In this document: piece after piece, positions 33,411 to 61,816 of the stretch
How positions within the stretch are numbered: the first letter of the stretch is position 1
How the letters are laid out: each line of letters opens with the position of its first letter
DNA from: Escherichia phage vB_EcoM_JNE01
Sequence record: OR670491
Length of the DNA: 64,000 bases
Reading direction: 5' to 3' (one strand)
Position numbers and translations under genes: made by a program
The notes under the pieces: model-generated
What the model saw: the letters and a program-made list of their open reading frames with translations, nothing else
Told to the model about the DNA's origin: nothing
Database searches by the model: none

Positions 33411-33439
33411 TTGACACTAAGGTGCGTTTCAAATATAAT
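33411..33439 (+). promoter_or_regulatory. sigma70-type promoter (TTGACA-17-TATAAT)
   Basis: Perfect consensus hexamers with 17-bp spacer. Confidence 0.7.
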
Positions 33440-35834: not shown

Positions 35835-35858
35835 GGGAGTTCATTGTGAACTCCCTTT
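35835..35858 (+). terminator. rho-independent terminator
   Basis: GGGAGTTCA-TTG-TGAACTCCC hairpin plus TTT. Confidence 0.65.
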
Positions 35859-35873
35859 ACTATAGGTGAATGT

Positions 35874-36476
35874 ATGTTTTTTAAAGAAACTCTAGAAGTG
35901 TTTGATATTGTCAAAGCATTGTATTACAGTAATAATATGGTAGAATGTATCTTACCATATGAATATAGTAATGATGCTGGACACAGTTTACGCATTGAAT
36001 CGGTTAATGGTTTTCACGGATACTATCAGTTTACCAAAAAACTTTCAGTACCGGAACATACCGTTCAATCCGTTCAAAAGCCACTAGGCCAGCATGTACA
36101 CTCTATTCCCAATCCAATTACCAATACCAATAACATATCAATATCAGGTGGCATCGCGTTTAATACAGTGACTACACCACAACGCTATACTATTAAAGTT
36201 AAAGTGGATAGAAATTTACGTACTTTATTAAGTGTTGATTGGTATGAATTAAAAGGTACTGGTTATTATATTAATAGTAATGGAACGGCTGTTGCAACTG
36301 ATGGGAACTTAATCGCATCTGCATTATATCTAGGTGAATCAACTATAGTTGATGGTGTATTATATGGAAATGATTCAGCCGAAGCATTTTTGAAAGATGT
36401 AGCCAGTGATGATAAAATAAGTATTCTTTCACTTATTAATCTACGTAAGGATGCAGATGAAATATTTAAAAAATGA
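35874..36476 (+). CDS. hypothetical protein
   Basis: 200-aa ORF, RBS AGGTGA. Confidence 0.45.
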   Translation: MFFKETLEVFDIVKALYYSNNMVECILPYEYSNDAGHSLRIESVNGFHGYYQFTKKLSVPEHTVQSVQKPLGQHVHSIPNPITNTNNISISGGIAFNTVTTPQRYTIKVKVDRNLRTLLSVDWYELKGTGYYINSNGTAVATDGNLIASALYLGESTIVDGVLYGNDSAEAFLKDVASDDKISILSLINLRKDADEIFKK

Positions 36477-37056
36477 TTATAAGCACCAAGAAATACTAAA
36501 AACCGTAGAACAACAAGTTAATGCGGATTTAATGAAACTTAGTAATTTTGATCTTACTATATTTCATTATCTTGAATTGGAAAACCAGTTCGATTCATTT
36601 AATATTACCGTACATCCTAATAAGATCGTTGCAAAAAGTAAATTATATTACCCAGTAAAAGTTACTGAACTGCAATATAATAGTCCTTATATTAATCATA
36701 TAAGTGCTATTGCTAATGCAAAATCTTATAATAATAATTCTTGGATATCAAACACAATACAACAATCGATGCAATCTAAAAACCAACAGACTTTCGATAC
36801 AACTGTAAAAATAAAATACGAATACATTTTTGATACAGATGGTGTTTTTATGGGGTATAGTGTATTTGAAAATCTCAATGAGATGATACACCAGGTCGTA
36901 CTTGGTAAACATAAAGTTTTCGTAGATGCAGAGTGGTATCAGTACGAGGATTTTCGAGCAGTTGCATTTCAGAAAACATTAGTACAAGATGAAGCATTCT
37001 CTCTATTATTTGTTTGTGATATTATTTCCACACTAAGAGGTGACTTATGTATTTGA
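36457..37056 (+). CDS. hypothetical protein
   Basis: ATG 36457 after AAGGA. Confidence 0.45.
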   Translation: MKYLKNDYKHQEILKTVEQQVNADLMKLSNFDLTIFHYLELENQFDSFNITVHPNKIVAKSKLYYPVKVTELQYNSPYINHISAIANAKSYNNNSWISNTIQQSMQSKNQQTFDTTVKIKYEYIFDTDGVFMGYSVFENLNEMIHQVVLGKHKVFVDAEWYQYEDFRAVAFQKTLVQDEAFSLLFVCDIISTLRGDLCI

Positions 37057-37394
37057 TTGTTGTAGGAATTTTTTTAGTACTTTCTATCATTGCAGTTAAA
37101 TTGGCTGCTGTAGTTCGTTCTAAGTTAGTTGTAGGTGAAGATGGTTCAGTACTGGATTTTGTTATGGACTATCCAAAAACGTGTGCTATAATTGTACTTG
37201 TATTCCAGTTGTTTGGTGCATTTACAGTACGCCATCATCTGTACAATTTATATGATTGTAGTGTTCGCTCTGCATCACAAGGTGTAGAAACAGATTACAG
37301 TTGGTACTATGAGAAGTGCCGATTCAAAAACCAACATGGTATTTGGGTTGACTTTGATAAATTACGAGGAACACCATCTGGTGAAGAAGAATAA
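37047..37394 (+). CDS. small membrane protein
   Basis: 115 aa, N-terminal hydrophobic helix. Confidence 0.4.
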   Translation: MYLIVVGIFLVLSIIAVKLAAVVRSKLVVGEDGSVLDFVMDYPKTCAIIVLVFQLFGAFTVRHHLYNLYDCSVRSASQGVETDYSWYYEKCRFKNQHGIWVDFDKLRGTPSGEEE

Positions 37395-37876
37395 TGTTTG
37401 AATTCCCTGAAGAAGAAAAGAATTACATCGATGCTACTGATGATGGTTATCGTCACATTAACATCTATAGTAAAGCAAAAACTAAACTTGGAAGGGATCT
37501 ATCAAACTTTTCTAATCATAGCTTTAGACTAGAACCTTATGGTTGGTTCCCGTCAGTAGAGACATTCTACTTCTGGTTCTTAACAGGACAGAAGCATGAT
37601 GATCTACGTAAAGTATCAGGGGCAGCGGCGAAAGCTGCTGCTAACAAGTACATGCATGACCGTATTGAGATGACAGATGAATGTATATCTATCATCCAGG
37701 ATGCTATTTGTGCAAAGATAATGCAAAATCCAGAATTAGCTGAACGCTTACGTAAGAGTAAATTACCATTTTGTCATTACTATGTGTACGCTGGGAAAGT
37801 TGTAGATGTTTCTGGTGAGCACTCATGGTTTGTTCAGACGTTCGAAGACATTAGAACAGCATTGAGGGAATTATGA
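37394..37876 (+). CDS. NADAR-domain protein (YbiA-like)
   Basis: 160 aa; LSNFSNHSF, SVETFYFW, AICAKIMQNPELAERL, EHSWF resemble NADAR/YbiA signature blocks. Confidence 0.5.
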   Translation: MFEFPEEEKNYIDATDDGYRHINIYSKAKTKLGRDLSNFSNHSFRLEPYGWFPSVETFYFWFLTGQKHDDLRKVSGAAAKAAANKYMHDRIEMTDECISIIQDAICAKIMQNPELAERLRKSKLPFCHYYVYAGKVVDVSGEHSWFVQTFEDIRTALREL

Positions 37877-38166
37877 GTAAATTATTCAGTACAGAAGGAT
37901 GTTGGTGCTGTTTTTCGAAAAATGTAAACTACGATATGGTAATGGAGATTGTTGGTAGAAATTATATTATAAGCGATTACTCTTATAATTATGATACTCT
38001 ATCAATAGTGACGTATCAATGTATATGTAATAATTGTTGGGCTAACGGAATATATGACAAATTAGCATGTTCTACAAACGAATGGATAGTATTATGTTTT
38101 AGTGAATATGTTTCAAACAACAAAGAGTTCTTTGAAAGGAGAGTTGATGCCAGAAAAAATGTTTAA
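37873..38166 (+). CDS. Cys-rich hypothetical protein
   Basis: 97 aa with multiple CxxC-like pairs. Confidence 0.4.
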   Translation: MSKLFSTEGCWCCFSKNVNYDMVMEIVGRNYIISDYSYNYDTLSIVTYQCICNNCWANGIYDKLACSTNEWIVLCFSEYVSNNKEFFERRVDARKNV

Positions 38167-38386: not shown

Positions 38387-38541
38387 AAACGATGTTGACA
38401 TTATTCTTAGTACCACTTATAATGATTGTATTGTCTATTGGTGTTCCACAAACGTATGTGGTACAATTAAATATAATTGAGATTATATTGTTCGTGGTGC
38501 ATTGTTTATTATGCCGTAGTTATGTCAAGAAGAGGACTTAA
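38383..38541 (+). CDS. small hydrophobic peptide (52 aa)
   Basis: Not in track (under 60 aa); ATGA overlap upstream, stop overlaps next ATG. Confidence 0.3.
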   Translation: MKTMLTLFLVPLIMIVLSIGVPQTYVVQLNIIEIILFVVHCLLCRSYVKKRT

Positions 38542-40649: not shown

Positions 40650-40672
40650 TGCCCCTACTTAGGGGCATTTTT
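40650..40672 (+). terminator. rho-independent terminator
   Basis: TGCCCCT-ACTT-AGGGGCA hairpin plus T5. Confidence 0.6.
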
Positions 40673-40690: not shown

Positions 40691-40718
40691 TTGACATTTG
40701 GTGATTAGGTGATATAAT
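40691..40718 (+). promoter_or_regulatory. sigma70-type promoter
   Basis: TTGACA, 16-bp spacer, TATAAT. Confidence 0.6.
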
Positions 40719-54281: not shown

Positions 54282-54455
<174 letters not shown>

Positions 54456-54459
54456 TTTT

Positions 54460-54849
54460 ATGCATAGTACTGATGTGATATTACACGGAGTGAGATGTAC
54501 AAATTTACTTTTGGTATCATATATACCAGCACGTGTAAATCGCCAAGACATGGTATATCCAACTTCTAATACAGCAGTGCTAAAAGATGATACACAACTC
54601 GCCTACCGTTATACATTCGCTTATTCACCATATAGTGCTTTGCATGTTATCTTCAAAGAAGATGGTACAGTACAAGTGAAATATGTTGATAATGATCAGT
54701 TTAACGATGCTATCATCTCCAACTTCACTATACATGATACTGAAGAAGAGTTATTCATGAAAAGTACTATACAAAATGATTTTGGTATAGGCACTAAAGA
54801 AATTGAAACATTTCGCTTGATCTGGGATGAGTATTTTGGTACAATTTAG
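54460..54849 (+). CDS. family-A paralog
   Basis: C-terminal TEEELFMKSTIQND; ATG 54460 (track GTG start would lie inside the tRNA-like element). Confidence 0.5.
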   Translation: MHSTDVILHGVRCTNLLLVSYIPARVNRQDMVYPTSNTAVLKDDTQLAYRYTFAYSPYSALHVIFKEDGTVQVKYVDNDQFNDAIISNFTIHDTEEELFMKSTIQNDFGIGTKEIETFRLIWDEYFGTI

Positions 54850-54881
54850 TACTGATAAATATTAATGAAAGGTATAGAGAA

Positions 54882-55079
54882 ATGACTAAATCCGAACTTC
54901 TGGCTTTATTAGAAAATTATCCAGATGATGCATGTATTGAAGTAGTTCACACTGCACAACATTTTGACATTGAAGATGTTGTACGATACAATGACAAAGG
55001 TGTGATGATTATGGAACTATGTATCGGTGCTTTGAAAACTGTGCCAGAATCAACTAAACGAAAATCCCAAAAGGAATAA
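54882..55079 (+). CDS. hypothetical protein
   Basis: 65-aa ORF, RBS AGGTATAGAG. Confidence 0.4.
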   Translation: MTKSELLALLENYPDDACIEVVHTAQHFDIEDVVRYNDKGVMIMELCIGALKTVPESTKRKSQKE

Positions 55080-55085
55080 AATATT

Positions 55086-55319
55086 ATGGAAACTAATACA
55101 ATTTTAGATGTAGTAAACAGTGTTAATACTGGTGACTTTGTTCACATTCTTTTATCCAACATCCGCGTTAAGGGTATTGTTGAAAGTGTTGATTCTGAAG
55201 TTCTAACTATTGTTGAAGTTGATCCATACGACAATAATAAATCAGTTCGTCTGTGCATTGATGTTTCCAAAATTGTAGCACTCGGTACAGAAATTATTAC
55301 TGAAGAAACTAATCTATAA
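55086..55319 (+). CDS. hypothetical protein
   Basis: 77-aa ORF, RBS AAGGA. Confidence 0.4.
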   Translation: METNTILDVVNSVNTGDFVHILLSNIRVKGIVESVDSEVLTIVEVDPYDNNKSVRLCIDVSKIVALGTEIITEETNL

Positions 55320-55330
55320 AACGACAATAA

Positions 55331-55407
<77 letters not shown>

Positions 55408-55460
55408 CTTAAGAGGATTTAATATGTTTAAAGATGAACGTCCAGATTTGTAAATAATCA

Positions 55461-55489
55461 TTGACTAAATAATCCAGTACTGATAAAAT
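55461..55489 (+). promoter_or_regulatory. tRNA promoter, variant of the 29-bp repeat
   Basis: TTGACT, 17-bp spacer containing CCAGTACTGA, TAAAAT; tRNA-Ser 5' end lies 7 nt downstream. Confidence 0.6.
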
Positions 55490-55495
55490 AAATTT

Positions 55496-55582
<87 letters not shown>

Positions 55583-55589
55583 TCAATAT

Positions 55590-55671
<82 letters not shown>

Positions 55672-55692
55672 ATTTTAATTTAAGGTGTATCC

Positions 55693-55857
55693 ATGACGCA
55701 TGAAGAATGGATGAATGATATTAATTTTAGATATTCGGGTATCGGTAGTTGGCGAAAATATCATTGGGAAATTATATCAGACCCAGCAGAATACGATAAA
55801 CTTATAAACCATGAAGTATATCCGTGGTTCTTTATTGAAATAATGGTACGAATATGA
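55693..55857 (+). CDS. family-B mini-protein (MTHEEWMNDINFRY...)
   Basis: 54-aa ORF; near-identical 5' end to the next two copies. Confidence 0.45.
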   Translation: MTHEEWMNDINFRYSGIGSWRKYHWEIISDPAEYDKLINHEVYPWFFIEIMVRI

Positions 55858-56018
55858 CGCATGAAGAATGGATGAATGACATTAATTTTAGATATTCGGG
55901 TTTCGGTAAATGGCTAAAGTATCATTGGGAATTTATTACTGATCCTCAAATGTACGATAAACTTATAAATGATCAAGCATATGAAATTTACTTATTTGAA
56001 ATACTGGTCAGAACATGA
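55854..56018 (+). CDS. family-B mini-protein (MTHEEWMNDINFRY...)
   Basis: 54-aa ORF, ATGA overlap; tandem duplicate of the previous gene. Confidence 0.45.
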   Translation: MTHEEWMNDINFRYSGFGKWLKYHWEFITDPQMYDKLINDQAYEIYLFEILVRT

Positions 56019-56179
56019 CGCATGAAGAATGGATGAGAAAACAAAAGCTAACATGGAATCCTTATTGTTACCAGTTAGACCCAAGAATGTGGGATGTGAT
56101 ACGTATTAAATGTATGTACAAATCATTTCTTGGTGATATAATGGATGTTGAAGTACTGATGAATTTAGTACATCGATAA
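56015..56179 (+). CDS. family-B mini-protein (MTHEEWMRKQK...)
   Basis: 54-aa ORF, ATGA overlap. Confidence 0.45.
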   Translation: MTHEEWMRKQKLTWNPYCYQLDPRMWDVIRIKCMYKSFLGDIMDVEVLMNLVHR

Positions 56180-56209
56180 TAAAAATCTTATTTAAATGGG
56201 ATTGATATC

Positions 56210-56571
<362 letters not shown>

Positions 56572-56575
<4 letters not shown>

Positions 56576-56600
56576 CTAAATAGTTCAGTACTGATAAAAT
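56572..56600 (+). promoter_or_regulatory. copy of the 29-bp promoter repeat
   Basis: TTGACTAAATAGTTCAGTACTGATAAAAT; -35 TTGACT, 17-bp spacer, -10 TAAAAT. Confidence 0.6.
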
Positions 56601-56757
56601 GGTAAGGCGTGGAAATATGTTTACAGTAGTTACATAGTAGCCTGTACGCCCCACGTCAAGGTAGCCGAAAGGCAAGTTAAAAAGGGTGGTTATAAAGCTG
56701 AATTAACAGCGGCGTTTAAAAGCGTCACCATCCATTTTTTTAATTAAAGTTGGTGAT

Positions 56758-57259
<502 letters not shown>

Positions 57260-57264
57260 AAATC

Positions 57265-57354
57265 GGTCCCGTTGCCTAGCGTCCGAAGGCAGCCGACTCA
57301 TAATCGGTCACAGTTAATGACACGCCACTGGTTAGAATCCAGTCGGGACCACCA
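57265..57354 (+). tRNA. tRNA with CAT anticodon (Met or Ile2), atypically long
   Basis: Perfect acceptor GGTCCCG/CGGGACC, anticodon stem GCCGA/TCGGT with loop CTCATAA, T-arm ACTGG-TTAGAAT-CCAGT, encoded CCA; 18-nt variable region. Confidence 0.5.
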
Positions 57355-57358
57355 ATTA

Positions 57359-57431
57359 GACTCTGTAGTTCAGTTGGTAGAACGCTTCACTCATAATGAA
57401 GAAGTCGCTGGTTCAATCCCAGTACTGACCA
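57359..57431 (+). tRNA. tRNA-like gene with CAT anticodon, acceptor stem unpaired
   Basis: Textbook D-arm GTTC-AGTTGGTA-GAAC and anticodon arm CTTCA-CTCATAA-TGAAG, T-loop TTCAATC; 5' and 3' acceptor strands do not pair as read. Confidence 0.4.
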
Positions 57432-57439
57432 CAAAAAAA

Positions 57440-59137
<1,698 letters not shown>

Positions 59138-59218
59138 AATATTCTCCTGAATTTTCTAAAAGTTATAATAATATTTAGTTACAATATTTATGATATAGAT
59201 TAAAAAGTTGAAATGTGT

Positions 59219-59247
59219 TCAAAAATGTGGTATAATACCTCTGTTGT
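59219..59247 (+). promoter_or_regulatory. sigma70-type promoter with extended -10
   Basis: TTGAAA, 17-bp spacer, TGG-TATAAT. Confidence 0.55.
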
Positions 59248-59252
59248 TCACG

Positions 59253-59486
<234 letters not shown>

Positions 59487-59559
59487 CTTTTTAATTTAAA
59501 AGTACTTTACTGTAGTGTTTAGTATCGTATATTGTAATCAAAAGGATATAATAAAACTC

Positions 59560-60084
59560 ATGGAGAGAGTTGAAGAATGGCGTGATGTTGTTGGTTATGA
59601 AGACCATTTCCAAGTTAGTAACAAAGGTAGAATTTACAGCAAAAGAACAAATAAAATTTTAGTTCAAGGTACTAATAAAAAAGGTTATAAAGTATTAAGT
59701 ACTAGAATTGGTGGAAGAACTGGAGTATGTAAGTGTTTTAGGGTTCATATTTTAGTGGCTCAAGCATTTATATCAAATCCACATAATAAGCCCATTGTAA
59801 ACCATAAAGATGGCAATAAACAAAACAACGAAGACTGGAATTTAGAATGGTCTACATATAGTGAGAATACTAATCATGCTTATAAAAATGGTTTAACAAT
59901 ACCATTAAAAGGAACTGAACAAGTTCAATCCAAATTAACCGAAGATGATGTTAGATACATACGTTCAGTGTATAAACCATATGATAAAACATATGGTGCA
60001 TCTATGTTAGCAAAACAATTTGGTGTACATCATAGTTTAATATCGGATATAGCATCACATAAATCATGGAAGCATGTTAAGTAA
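59560..60084 (+). CDS. HNH homing endonuclease
   Basis: NUMOD4-like GYEDHFQVSNKGRIYS, HNH core VNHKDGNKQNN...ENTNHA, C-terminal HTH; ATG 59560 (track start 59515 is GTG). Confidence 0.8.
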   Translation: MERVEEWRDVVGYEDHFQVSNKGRIYSKRTNKILVQGTNKKGYKVLSTRIGGRTGVCKCFRVHILVAQAFISNPHNKPIVNHKDGNKQNNEDWNLEWSTYSENTNHAYKNGLTIPLKGTEQVQSKLTEDDVRYIRSVYKPYDKTYGASMLAKQFGVHHSLISDIASHKSWKHVK

Positions 60085-60103
60085 TAAAAAAACAGTACTG
60101 AAC

Positions 60104-60135
<32 letters not shown>

Positions 60136-60146
60136 CAAACATATTC

Positions 60147-60222
60147 GGCCCTGTATACAATCCAGGAATGTACTCTGCTCATAACAGATGTAAGGTCGGG
60201 GCAGCACCGACCAGGGCCACCA
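60147..60222 (+). tRNA. tRNA-like gene with CAT anticodon and non-canonical T-loop
   Basis: 76 nt incl. CCA; perfect acceptor GGCCCTG/CAGGGCC, D-stem TACA/TGTA, anticodon loop CTCATAA, T-stem GTCGG/CCGAC with loop GGCAGCA. Confidence 0.45.
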
Positions 60223-60382
60223 ATTTTGGACACATTAATCTTCGATGGTAATGCTGGTTAATATCTTACGGCTGTAAAATGCAATACATTACATATTGCT
60301 TCAGGTACAGAGATATAAAGATTAATTAATAAGGTATCCTTATTTTGTCCAATCCTTAATAACTAGAAATGGTGGGAAAGAA

Positions 60383-60829
60383 ATGAAAGGTGTTTCAATT
60401 TTTTACGATTACCATGAACAAGGTTTACCACATCAGATTGCTGGAATCTATTCTACGTCTGATAAAACCGAAGAAGAGATGCGTACTGAATTATTGTCGC
60501 TAATTGGTGAGAGAAGTTTCCATGAACGTGATCAACCAATTTTCATTAACCACACACATTTGTATGCAAAAAGTTTGCTAGGTGAAGAACTTGATAAAAA
60601 GGTGGAATACACTTTGAAACAGTTCTTCCCAATCGCACTTGATGTAGTTGGTTTCAAATCATCGGATTTCAAGTTCATGTACTATGATGTTGAAGCATAT
60701 GAGTTCGCTTGGAACAATCGTTATCATAAACAATTACACCAATATCGTTTAGAACTTCAACATGAAGCGGCTGAAGCATATAAAGCAAAACGAGCAGCAC
60801 AGAAGCTTGAAGGTAACGTACAGAAATGA
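60383..60829 (+). CDS. hypothetical protein
   Basis: 148-aa ORF, RBS GGTGGGAAAG. Confidence 0.45.
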   Translation: MKGVSIFYDYHEQGLPHQIAGIYSTSDKTEEEMRTELLSLIGERSFHERDQPIFINHTHLYAKSLLGEELDKKVEYTLKQFFPIALDVVGFKSSDFKFMYYDVEAYEFAWNNRYHKQLHQYRLELQHEAAEAYKAKRAAQKLEGNVQK

Positions 60830-61128
60830 TAGAATCTATCTTATGTGTACTGTTGCCAATTTTAGTAGTTGCTTTGATATGTCTTTATTATGGTTACAGT
60901 ACTGTAATTGATAAAAAGCAAGTTTACGTCATTACATTCAGTACTACACATATTGAGTTTGGTAATGTACATACCGGTATCACTTATATTGCATATCGTT
61001 GTAAGTACTTCCATAAGTTCAAATCTTATGATATGATCTATTACTGTGATGAATCCAACGTGAACCGTTATATTGACATAAACGATGAATCAAAAAAATC
61101 GTTTTACAGTTTTAAAGAATTAAAATAA
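60826..61128 (+). CDS. small membrane protein
   Basis: 100 aa, N-terminal hydrophobic helix. Confidence 0.4.
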   Translation: MIESILCVLLPILVVALICLYYGYSTVIDKKQVYVITFSTTHIEFGNVHTGITYIAYRCKYFHKFKSYDMIYYCDESNVNRYIDINDESKKSFYSFKELK

Positions 61129-61142
61129 ATGTAGACGGATGT

Positions 61143-61156
61143 ATTCAGTACTGAAT
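61143..61156. repeat. 14-bp perfect palindrome ATTCAGTACTGAAT (copy 1)
   Basis: Self-complementary; part of a GTATTCAGTACTGAAT motif seen three times in an ORF-free region. Confidence 0.7.
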
Positions 61157-61208
61157 CACCAGGGGAGGTTGTAATTCCCGATTCAGTAGCTTTTTAAGCG
61201 GTTTCGTG

Positions 61209-61255
<47 letters not shown>

Positions 61256-61256
61256 G

Positions 61257-61309
<53 letters not shown>

Positions 61310-61327
61310 CGAGGTACTCCGGTATGC

Positions 61328-61360
<33 letters not shown>

Positions 61361-61406
61361 AATATTGTTGCAACAGTATTCAGTACTACTTTTTAATTGA
61401 CACAAC

Positions 61407-61435
61407 TTTGAATGAGGTGTATTATGTTCCAAGAA
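61407..61435 (+). promoter_or_regulatory. sigma70-type promoter
   Basis: TTGACA, 17-bp spacer, TATTAT. Confidence 0.5.
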
Positions 61436-61468
61436 GAAAACTGGGGTTTTTAACATAAAGGGGAATGT

Positions 61469-61576
61469 ATGAAAGTGAGTAAAGAAACGGCTAAACAGCT
61501 TGAAGAACTTTGTTCAGCACAACCTATGCCTACACTTGCTTTAATCAAGTTAATGCGTCGAAATAAGCAAAAATAA
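61469..61576 (+). CDS. small hypothetical protein (35 aa)
   Basis: RBS AAAGGGG; not in track. Confidence 0.3.
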   Translation: MKVSKETAKQLEELCSAQPMPTLALIKLMRRNKQK

Positions 61577-61659
61577 AAATGATAAATAATACAGTAAGAT
61601 GACCTCCCCTCAATACGAAAGAGTATGGAGACTTGTTGGTTATCTTACTTCTTAAATTA

Positions 61660-61732
61660 GCCTTCTTAACTCAGTTGGTAGAGTAATCGCCTTGTAAGCG
61701 ATAAGTCATCCGTTCAAGTCGGATAGAGGGCA
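61660..61732 (+). tRNA. tRNA-Thr (anticodon TGT)
   Basis: Acceptor GCCTTCT/AGAGGGC (one GU), D-arm ACTC-AGTTGGTA-GAGT, anticodon stem ATCGC/GCGAT with loop CTTGTAA, T-arm ATCCG-TTCAAGT-CGGAT. Confidence 0.8.
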
Positions 61733-61734
61733 CA

Positions 61735-61816
<82 letters not shown>

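Follow-up and report, generated by a model that had tools for sequence, protein, structure and literature searches.

A highly diverged NADAR-superfamily protein of Escherichia phage vB_EcoM_JNE01 and its possible role in removing ADP-ribose

The region analyzed here (the window) is a 64,000-nucleotide stretch of Escherichia phage vB_EcoM_JNE01 DNA (sequence record OR670491). It contains a small gene that starts with ATG and encodes a protein of 160 amino acids, and its boundaries, TGA stop codon included, were placed exactly in an earlier note made from the sequence alone (Table 1). The stop codon of the preceding open reading frame (ORF) overlaps the start of this gene (TAATG), its own stop codon overlaps the ATG of the following ORF (ATGA), and it is a real gene, translationally coupled to both neighbors. 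On its upstream side, the transcription unit containing the gene is likely delimited by a terminator-like hairpin found by pattern scanning; the unit would comprise ORFs 35874-36476, 36451-37056, 37047-37394, and 37394-37876 and continue onward. Promoter scanning gave no overall excess of sites, and no promoter was therefore assigned to the gene.

The gene lies in a plus-strand block alongside replication and nucleotide metabolism genes. None of the ten ORFs flanking it has a credible Pfam domain, and the only match of the downstream ORF is a subthreshold one to PLA2 (E = 0.037). No gene for DarT, an ART, or another ADP-ribose function was found adjoining it, and the window contained neither a second copy of the gene nor a match to ad hoc HMMs for DUF4326, SLOG, and Macro. 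The Vi01 homolog is flanked by a histone-like protein on one side and MazG/topoisomerase II on the other, and T4 30.3 is located close to DNA ligase and alt. Two metagenomic contexts were uninformative, except that one of them has a DUF4326 gene at a distance of about 6 kb.

Table 1. Positions of the NADAR-like gene, its conserved motifs, and neighboring features in the window
Feature	Position	Strand	Basis
Terminator-like hairpin, 9-bp stem with 5 GC pairs	35835..35855	+	Pattern scan only
Upstream ORF of 115 aa with hydrophobic N-terminal half	37047..37394	+	ORF list; no Pfam family
CDS for 160 aa plus TGA stop, predicted NADAR-fold protein	37394..37876	+	ORF with ATG start
DGYRHINIYS, aa 17-26, N-terminal strand motif	37442..37471	+	hhalign, opposite YbiA IINFYS
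LSNF, aa 36-39, equivalent of NADAR (F/L)SNF motif	37499..37510	+	Profile alignments
E56 codon	37559..37561	+	184/184 domains; three profile alignments
L63 codon, no Lys	37580..37582	+	hhalign columns
K80 codon, G76-x-x-A-K80 motif	37631..37633	+	184/184 domains; opposite AKKLGR of P. nicotianae NADAR
HYY, aa 128-130, start of C-terminal beta-hairpin	37775..37783	+	Conservation, hhalign, AF2 model
Downstream ORF, 97 aa, Cys-rich	37873..38166	+	ORF list; no credible Pfam family

The earlier note had called the protein NADAR-like because four sequence blocks resembled the YbiA/NADAR signature, namely, LSNFSNHSF (aa 36 to 44), SVETFYFW (aa 54 to 61), AICAKIMQNPELAERL (aa 104 to 119), and EHSWF (aa 142 to 146). 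All four are present, and the resemblance goes beyond chance, with three blocks aligning with canonical motifs in profile alignments. In the EHSWF block, W145 is the sole family-conserved residue (179 of 184 domains). When searched as a single sequence, the protein had no Pfam match at E ≤ 10, and thus neither PF08719 nor PF08010, and none in NCBIfam, PDB, or PADLOC; its PHROG matches, families 652 and 11222, are both annotated as of unknown function. PADLOC is insensitive here, since T4 AdfN is also negative in its library. The lack of a significant NADAR profile hit, which the earlier note had named as counting against the assignment, was indeed the result for the single sequence, yet it is due to model sensitivity and not to missing homology. 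The Pfam gathering thresholds are 35.1 bits for PF08719 (YbiA control, 133 bits) and 36 bits for PF08010 (T4 gp30.3 control, 237.5 bits). PF08719 matched none of 79 multidomain relatives at E ≤ 1e-3, and PF08010 gave subthreshold matches to the N-terminal third of the relatives P0022 (20.4 bits) and P0008 (15.9 bits), with E values of 5e-4 to 0.01.

Profiles built from the family recover the relationship. A 36-sequence family HMM matched the solved NADAR structures 8BAU (E = 4e-4) and YbiA (2B3W; E = 3.6e-3) in the PDB. An hhalign comparison with the T4 gp30.3/AdfN family gave a probability of 97.2% (E = 3e-11) over 138 columns, and the values were 85.8% for YbiA and 81.6% over 139 columns for the YbiA family. 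In the profile alignments, LSNF lies opposite the FSNF of YbiA/NADAR, SVE opposite TSEHYFQA, and AxxAKIxQNPEL opposite ALRAKFEQHAEL; three independent profile comparisons returned identical motifs in agreeing register. The NADAR-like assignment is upheld by the family HMM and hhalign matches, and membership of the window protein in the NADAR superfamily is close to certain.

The predicted structure confirms the NADAR (YbiA) fold for the window protein. The AF2 model (pLDDT, 90.5; pTM, 0.84) has strands at residues 21-23, 44-46, and 50-52, a hairpin at 129-132/135-138, and helices at 55-63, 69-73, 76-89, 95-110, 113-121, and 144-159. Foldseek matched it with a probability of 1.00 and TM scores of 0.56 to 0.59 to three NADAR structures only, and in two independent structure comparison programs NADAR structures alone were ranked, with the next match far behind. 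Beyond the protein's own family, its BFVD neighbors carry annotations as NADARs of giant viruses.

Residue conservation was assessed across 184 family domains. D17, G18, H21, N23, Y25, and S26 of the N-terminal strand motif are invariant or nearly so, and N38 and F39 are kept in 180 and 174 domains, respectively. E56 lies opposite the catalytic, ribose-binding Glu of T4 AdfN (E36), YbiA (E48), P. nicotianae NADAR (E43), and E. coli C7 NADAR (E88); the roles of these residues have been described previously (PMC11543638, PMC11257639). Seven residues past this Glu is the phosphate-binding Lys (T4 K43, YbiA K55, P. nicotianae K50, and E. coli C7 K95), which is essential, as K43A kills AdfN in vivo and K95A inactivates the E. 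coli C7 enzyme (PMC11543638). This position is L63 in the window protein, and its commonest residues in the family are S (42 domains), L (41), and G (33); the essential Lys is missing family-wide. At the second phosphate-binding position (R79 in P. nicotianae), approximately 72% of the family has R or K (72 and 60 of 184, respectively) and the window protein has N84, while the preceding residue, G in 171 domains, is A83 here. Substitutions of the clade at otherwise conserved positions are G57T, W59Y, G83A, R84N, and F97C. Candidates for occupying the place of the lost Lys in three dimensions are the conserved basic residues K80, R34, R72, and K108. The protein is mildly acidic, with a pI of 6.1, versus a median of 9.4 in the AdfN family. 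The catalytic position of the C-terminal strand is Glu in YbiA/NADAR, Asp in DarG1, and His in phage NADARs (PMC11543638, PMC11125620). In the hhalign alignments, H128 falls opposite the phage NADAR His (T4 AdfN H123) and the YbiA-family catalytic Glu (E125), and H128, Y129, and Y130 are kept in 182, 181, and 176 domains, respectively.

The best profile match of the window protein, over its full length, is T4 gp30.3/AdfN (PF08010), a glycohydrolase acting on guanine-ADP-ribose in DNA and countering DarTG1. Both are small, stand-alone, core-only proteins of about 150 to 160 aa with a common Glu (E56/E36) and with His replacing the YbiA Glu (H128/H123), and both are encoded by large myoviruses amid DNA metabolism genes. 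However, the window protein is below the PF08010 threshold, lacks K43, and is less basic, and its family additionally carries an invariant N-terminal DG-x2-HINIYS strand and a C-terminal HYY-hairpin-W, shows frequent fusion to DUF4326, SLOG, or Macro, and occurs in phage groups other than the T4-likes. Canonical NADARs, including YbiA (PF08719; 2B3W and 8BAU), have the INxYS, (F/L)SNF, S-x-E, A-K-x-x-G-R, and A-x-x-A-K-F/I-x-Q-x-P-x-L motifs in common with the family, in the same order. They differ in that the window protein has no PF08719 match and lacks the Lys of SEHYFQAQK, and its family has His instead of the VEH Glu and HYY plus a beta-hairpin instead of the E-x-x-x-x-D-x-x-W-G loop. In contrast to DarG1, the DarT1-associated NADAR antitoxin (8BAT), the window gene has no adjoining DarT toxin, and its product lacks the Lys and the N-terminal extension that forms the electropositive channel of DarG1 (PMC12945103); the family has His where DarG1 has the catalytic Asp of the C-terminal strand (EcC7 D171). 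The viral NADAR-SLOG-Macro-DUF4326 fusions that Iyer, Burroughs, Anantharaman, and Aravind presented in 2022 (PMC9503650) show the same architectures and large-myovirus bias as the window family, although the window protein stands alone and the DUF4326 of phage Turkey5 is a separate, distant gene.

The gene is under strong purifying selection, with a dN/dS ratio of about 0.05 (0.058 in the comparison with Turkey5 and 0.044 for the UE-S1 ortholog versus that of 121Q). Relative to the window, both UE-S1 and 121Q have saturated synonymous sites. Homologs were found by tblastn in 508 phage records, and the family comprises 36 close homologs and 2,147 clusters at 50% identity. Members occur in jumbo Asteriusvirus-like phages, Ackermannviridae, and many Vibrio, Erwinia, and Pseudomonas phages and not in T4-likes. 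Canonical NADARs are carried by 641 phage records, with a phage host range largely unlike that of the family. Yersinia phage fHe-Yen9-03 carries one canonical NADAR and one member of the window protein's family, which suggests nonredundant roles. The validated NADAR-Bas32 and NADAR-Bas60 probably lie outside this family, since a DELTA-BLAST match to the canonical NADAR domain is what identified them and the tblastn organism counts look too small to cover Vequintavirinae. The clade is large and phage-dominated, is captured by no Pfam model, and has the T4 gp30.3/AdfN family as its nearest profile relative.

In the 79 multidomain members, the domain partners are DUF4326 (28 members), YAcAr SLOG (23), DprA-like SLOG (11), and Macro (5). 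The arrangement with DUF4326 before and SLOG after the family domain is recurrent, and Macro-DUF4326 followed by the family domain is also found. Turkey5 (97% identical) encodes a stand-alone DUF4326 (PF14216; E = 7.5e-25) distant from the NADAR-like gene and, elsewhere in the genome, a SIR2 and Nudix pair; about 255 kb of its 351 kb was screened, with 150-233 kb and 298-351 kb lying outside the screen. A candidate Macro gene of Turkey5 at 120,065-120,541, matched by an ad hoc HMM, was rejected, as Pfam gave no confirmation.

Some ADP-ribose N-glycohydrolase activity of the window protein is probable. We tentatively favor, at somewhat less than even confidence, a small stand-alone NADAR-superfamily enzyme that erases ADP-ribose from a base of phage nucleic acid and thereby undoes a host defense. 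The ADP-ribose part of an N-glycosidic adduct would be held where the helical core and the C-terminal hairpin form a cleft, with the distal ribose flanked by E56 and H128, and hydrolysis of the ribose-nitrogen bond would release ADP-ribose. The likeliest substrate would be ADP-ribose joined to a phage nucleic acid base at an exocyclic amine, with DarT1-type guanine-N2-ADP-ribose on DNA as the prototype, and the jumbo phage would remove this host mark during replication. T4 AdfN, NADAR-Bas32, and NADAR-Bas60 counter DarTG1 and rescue phages (PMC11257639), and every NADAR so far tested, across all four recognized families, removes guanine-ADP-ribose from DNA (PMC11125620, PMC12945103). The counter to DNA ADP-ribosylation proposed in the earlier note is still an inference. 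A role against DarT1 may be plausible, with another base adduct or a soluble derivative of ADP-ribose about as likely. The lost Lys (L63), N84, the pI of 6.1, the fusion partners, the lack of an adjoining ADP-ribose gene, and the co-occurring canonical NADAR in fHe-Yen9-03 all argue against the nucleic acid and DarT1 reading. It is conceivable, though rather unlikely, that the Lys-less, His-type clade is a functionally distinct fifth NADAR family and a new class of counterdefense enzyme with a substrate other than DarT1-made guanine-ADP-ribose; candidates for such another ADP-ribose conjugate include an immune signal derived from ADP-ribose and, in RNA or DNA, ADP-ribose linked to adenine-N6 or cytosine.

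The same fold and N-glycosidase chemistry may instead serve a soluble ADP-ribose-derived molecule, such as a TIR/Thoeris-type signal, a toxic ADP-ribose metabolite, or an RNA repair by-product, in a pathway with DUF4326 (a predicted phosphatase), SLOG (a nucleotide sensor or glycosidase), Macro, and Nudix proteins. This is a possibility of some weight, albeit on the doubtful side. The fusions in the 79 multidomain members and the recurrent DUF4326-SLOG arrangement around the family domain point to it, as do the stand-alone DUF4326 and the SIR2 and Nudix pair of Turkey5, and Iyer et al. tied DUF4326, SLOG, and Macro fusions to soluble ADP-ribose derivatives (PMC9503650). YbiA acts as an N-glycosidase on small molecules (cited in PMC11125620), and loss of the canonical Lys and a nonbasic pI fit an altered, non-DNA substrate. 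However, cleavage of an immune signaling nucleotide has been shown for no NADAR, the experimentally tested phage NADARs all act on DNA guanine-ADP-ribose, Macro-type partners fit removal of macromolecular adducts equally well, and the partner genes do not adjoin the NADAR-like gene in the window phage. The family-wide loss of the Lys, together with the five clade substitutions, would also suit a protein that has lost catalysis and serves to bind or soak up ADP-ribose-containing ligands or ADP-ribosylated nucleic acid. Such a function is improbable, because the polar residues E56, H128, K80, H21, N23, and D17, described as invariant in 184 very diverse sequences, look like an active site, the dN/dS ratio is low, and T4 AdfN is active with His at the third catalytic position.

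A housekeeping N-glycosidase of the YbiA type, detoxifying riboflavin pathway intermediates or ribosylamines and unrelated to defense, is very improbable. The Glu and the E-x5-D-x2-W-G segment that define YbiA are replaced, riboflavin genes are absent near the NADAR-like gene, the phage-dominated family is fused to domains of the ADP-ribose network, and hhalign matches the AdfN family far better than YbiA. The empty single-sequence searches and the uninformative PHROG annotations could be taken to mean that the NADAR likeness is spurious and that the gene encodes a small helical phage protein without relation to NADARs; this has hardly any likelihood given the structure comparison rankings, with their large gap after the NADARs, the constant motif register, and the subthreshold PF08010 matches in relatives.

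The gene encodes a highly diverged but genuine member of the NADAR superfamily, a kind of protein that is already known. The defeat of DarTG1 by phage NADARs is a recent finding, and those tested are limited to T4-type and canonical NADARs; the gene represents a third, large phage clade. No literature specific to this clade or to NADARs in Asteriusvirus was found, and neither was an assay of any clade member. The clade keeps the Glu/His pair without the supposedly essential Lys, which bears on the extent to which the NADAR active site is really required and on whether phage NADARs act on DNA guanine adducts only or also on predicted soluble ADP-ribose signals. If the clade were a fifth NADAR family, some 500 of the large phages sequenced would carry a new class of counterdefense enzyme. 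The protein from a 97%-identical phage is already labeled "NADAR domain-containing protein," and the annotation in nearly all genomes is "hypothetical" because standard domain models miss the family, which merits a profile model of its own.

The four peptide blocks from which the earlier note had recognized a NADAR-like protein all lie within one ORF of the window (amino acids 36 to 44, 54 to 61, 104 to 119, and 142 to 146). This ORF shares bases with both neighbours, at its start with the upstream stop codon (TAATG) and at its stop with the downstream start codon (ATGA), which places the gene inside a tightly packed plus-strand unit. Escherichia phage Turkey5, a jumbo phage of 351 kb, matches the window at 97% identity, and the window's local identity with Asteriusvirus UE-S1 is ~78%. 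The gene differs from its Turkey5 orthologue by 8 synonymous and 2 nonsynonymous changes (dN/dS, 0.058), and the orthologues of UE-S1 and 121Q gave a dN/dS of 0.044; between the window gene and these two, synonymous sites are saturated, with a dN of ~0.08 to 0.09. The gene is real and constrained, and purifying selection on it is strong.

Searched as a single sequence, the protein had no match in Pfam at an E value of ≤10, neither to NADAR (PF08719) nor to Phage_30_3 (PF08010), and none in NCBIfam, PDB sequences, or PADLOC. In PHROGs, it matched phrog_652 (E = 1e-42) and phrog_11222, both of "unknown function." By tblastn, it is present in 508 phage records, virtually all labelled hypothetical, including Asteriusvirus (121Q and PBECO4), Ackermannviridae (Vi01 and many Salmonella, Klebsiella, and Dickeya relatives), and jumbo phages of Erwinia, Serratia, Yersinia, Cronobacter, Vibrio, Pseudomonas, and Ralstonia. 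The exception is the near-identical Turkey5 orthologue (XMR01922.1), already deposited in GenBank as a "NADAR domain-containing protein." A search of 5.8 billion proteins yielded 36 homologues, none with a precomputed NADAR domain and one (P0024) with DUF4326 at its N terminus; their alignment was used for the family HMM, hhalign, and AlphaFold2.

The NADAR-like call, which the single-sequence search against PF08719 did not recover, was borne out at the family level. The only noncollagen matches of the family HMM among PDB sequences were the NADAR of P. nicotianae (8BAU; E = 4e-4), Escherichia coli YbiA (2B3W; E = 3.6e-3), and a Geobacter NADAR (8BAT; E = 0.67). With hhalign, the family matched the family alignment of T4 gp30.3 (AdfN), which counters DarTG1, at 97.2% probability (E = 3.3e-11; 138 columns), YbiA alone at 85.8%, and the YbiA-family alignment at 81.6% (139 columns). 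The AlphaFold2 model (pLDDT, 90.5; pTM, 0.84) has a helical core surrounded by two small beta-hairpins, and Foldseek placed it with the same three NADAR structures (probability, 1.00; TM, 0.56 to 0.59), everything else scoring ≤0.05. Among viral predicted structures, its own family was followed by annotated NADARs of giant viruses and nidovirus polyproteins. As positive controls, T4 gp30.3 matched PF08010 at 4.6e-71 and YbiA matched PF08719 at 1.5e-38; with PF08010, the scores of two relatives of the window protein were only subthreshold. The protein genuinely belongs to the NADAR superfamily, and its family is recognized by neither Pfam model. A "DprA-like protein" of Erwinia phage vB_EamM_RAY (A0A173GE06; BFVD; 293 aa) aligned with the model over 151 columns at a TM of 0.89; this label evidently reflects the SLOG half only, with the NADAR-like half unannotated.

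In 184 family domains aligned to the family HMM, D17, G18, H21, N23, Y25, S26, T30, G33, N38, G50, F52, E56, G76, A79, K80, L124, P125, H128, Y129, Y130, and W145 are invariant or nearly so (E56 and K80, 184/184; H128, 182/184), followed by K108 (175/184) and R154 (170/184). E56 aligns with T4 E36, YbiA E48, P. nicotianae E43, and E. coli C7 E88, the Glu that serves in catalysis or ribose binding in all characterized NADARs, and H128 aligns with T4 H123 and YbiA E125, a position where YbiA/NADAR proteins have Glu, DarG1 has Asp, and "phage NADARs" have His (PMC11543638, PMC11125620, PMC12945103). The Lys 7 residues past the Glu (T4 K43, E. coli C7 K95, and P. nicotianae K50) coordinates the ADP-ribose phosphates and is essential by mutagenesis (PMC11543638); its position is L63 in the window protein and S, L, or G across the family. 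The equivalent of P. nicotianae R79 is R or K in ~72% of the family and N84 here. Asteriusvirus-type proteins, including that of the window, depart from the family consensus (G57T, W59Y, Y60F, G83A, R/K84N, and F97C) and retain every strictly invariant residue. The window protein thus shares homology, fold, Glu, and His with NADARs in general but lacks the Lys and falls below both Pfam thresholds. DarG1 identity was ruled out by the lack of a DarT neighbour and of the catalytic Asp.

An HMM search of 1.84 billion representatives found 2147 family clusters at an E value of ≤1e-3 and 724 at ≤1e-30, many of them multidomain. A Pfam scan of 79 multidomain members identified DUF4326 in 28, YAcAr (SLOG) in 23, DprA-like (SLOG) in 11, DUF488-N3a in 6, and Macro in 5, and PF08719 in none. 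Recurring architectures were DUF4326-[family domain]-SLOG, Macro-DUF4326-[family domain], and [family domain]-Macro; for viral NADARs, Iyer et al. 2022 (PMC9503650) described exactly these DUF4326, SLOG, and Macro combinations and noted a bias toward myoviruses of medium and jumbo size. A role of phage NADARs against DarTG1 has also been published (Nat Commun 2025; PMC11825919). The NADAR call is correct, and with these publications and the GenBank label its kind is already known; what remains new is a large clade with an atypical active site. Canonical YbiA-like NADARs occur in 641 phage records, a set largely different from that of the family. The jumbo Yersinia phage fHe-Yen9-03 carries both a canonical NADAR (g167; COG3236) and a family member (g348), a hint of nonredundancy.

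The window protein is predicted to work like a NADAR, and the best-supported reading is that of an N-glycohydrolase with an ADP-ribose conjugate as its substrate, in which E56 and H128 would lie at the catalytic ribose. That the resemblance is spurious is less likely, as is a noncatalytic binder or a YbiA-like housekeeping enzyme. The putative substrate would be a base-linked nucleic acid adduct, with DarT1-type G-ADPr as the prototype. Every assayed NADAR of all four recognized families removes G-ADPr (PMC11125620, PMC12945103), three independent phage NADARs counter DarTG1 (PMC11257639), AdfN is the nearest relative, and the gene travels with DNA metabolism genes, all of which favour this substrate by a small margin over a soluble ADP-ribose derivative. 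The latter is suggested by the absence of the essential Lys, a pI of 6.1 compared with the AdfN-family median of 9.4, fusion partners that point to small molecules, and the presence of a family member and a canonical NADAR in one genome. The anti-DNA-ADP-ribosylation role proposed in the earlier note is plausible. We consider it rather unlikely that these proteins form a fifth NADAR family acting on another ADP-ribose substrate.

Features of the window, of Turkey5, and of fHe-Yen9-03
Feature	Coordinates	Strand	Remark
NADAR-like ORF	37394..37876	+	ATG start, 160 aa, stop included
Terminator-like hairpin, strong	35835-35855		Pattern scan
Terminator-like hairpin	40650-40667		Pattern scan
Perfect 12/12 sigma-70 consensus	33411-33439, 38395-38423, 40691-40718	+	TTGACA, 16-17 nt spacer, TATAAT
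Cys-rich ORF	37873-38166	+	97 aa
Eight tRNA genes	54282-61813	+	
Turkey5 stand-alone DUF4326	92,016-92,345		PQ471516.1 (L014:42016-42345)
Turkey5 SIR2 + Nudix, RNA ligase + PNKP	80,978-82,278 and 61,771-64,953		PQ471516.1 (L014)
fHe-Yen9-03 NADAR-type genes	95,574-96,035 and 256,650-257,126		LT960552.1

The 10 flanking ORFs had no credible domain, and no DUF4326, SLOG, or Macro domain or paralogue of the gene was found in the window. Judged by the annotation of Turkey5, genes for ribonucleotide reductase, helicase, topoisomerase, and polymerase/clamp loader are located upstream; downstream are a small-ORF block, a cytosine methyltransferase, and a tRNA cluster. The Vi01 homologue is flanked by a histone-like gene and MazG/topoisomerase II, just past rIIA and rIIB, and T4 30.3 is near DNA ligase and alt. 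Outside the region matching the window, Turkey5 encodes a stand-alone DUF4326 (PF14216; E = 7.5e-25), annotated as hypothetical, whose gene lies between that of the anaerobic ribonucleotide reductase and that of a radical-SAM activase-like protein with the label "antiviral protein"; in other viruses, the NADAR-like domain is fused to DUF4326 more often than to any other partner. A SIR2-family protein adjoining a Nudt16-like Nudix hydrolase, together with an RNA ligase and a kinase/phosphatase of the PNKP type, adds to the NAD/ADP-ribose and RNA repair toolkit of this lineage, in which several components of the NAD/ADP-ribose network are thus encoded separately.

The strong hairpin probably opens the transcription unit of the gene. 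The perfect sigma-70 matches, none assignable to the NADAR-like gene, may be early, host-RNAP promoters of the jumbo phage; in total, 41 promoter-like sites were found in the window, compared with 41.9 expected from shuffles. The coupled downstream ORF is unusually Cys-rich (CWCC...C..C.NC...C), and its sole match, a subthreshold phospholipase A2 (E = 0.037), is probably a compositional artefact. The tRNA genes are Leu-TAA, Gly-TCC, Ser-TGA, Ser-ACT, two Met-CAT, and two Thr-TGT. The annotation of the matching Turkey5 region differs somewhat (Leu, Ser, Ser, Asn, Thr, and Thr) and places an HNH homing endonuclease between tRNAs.
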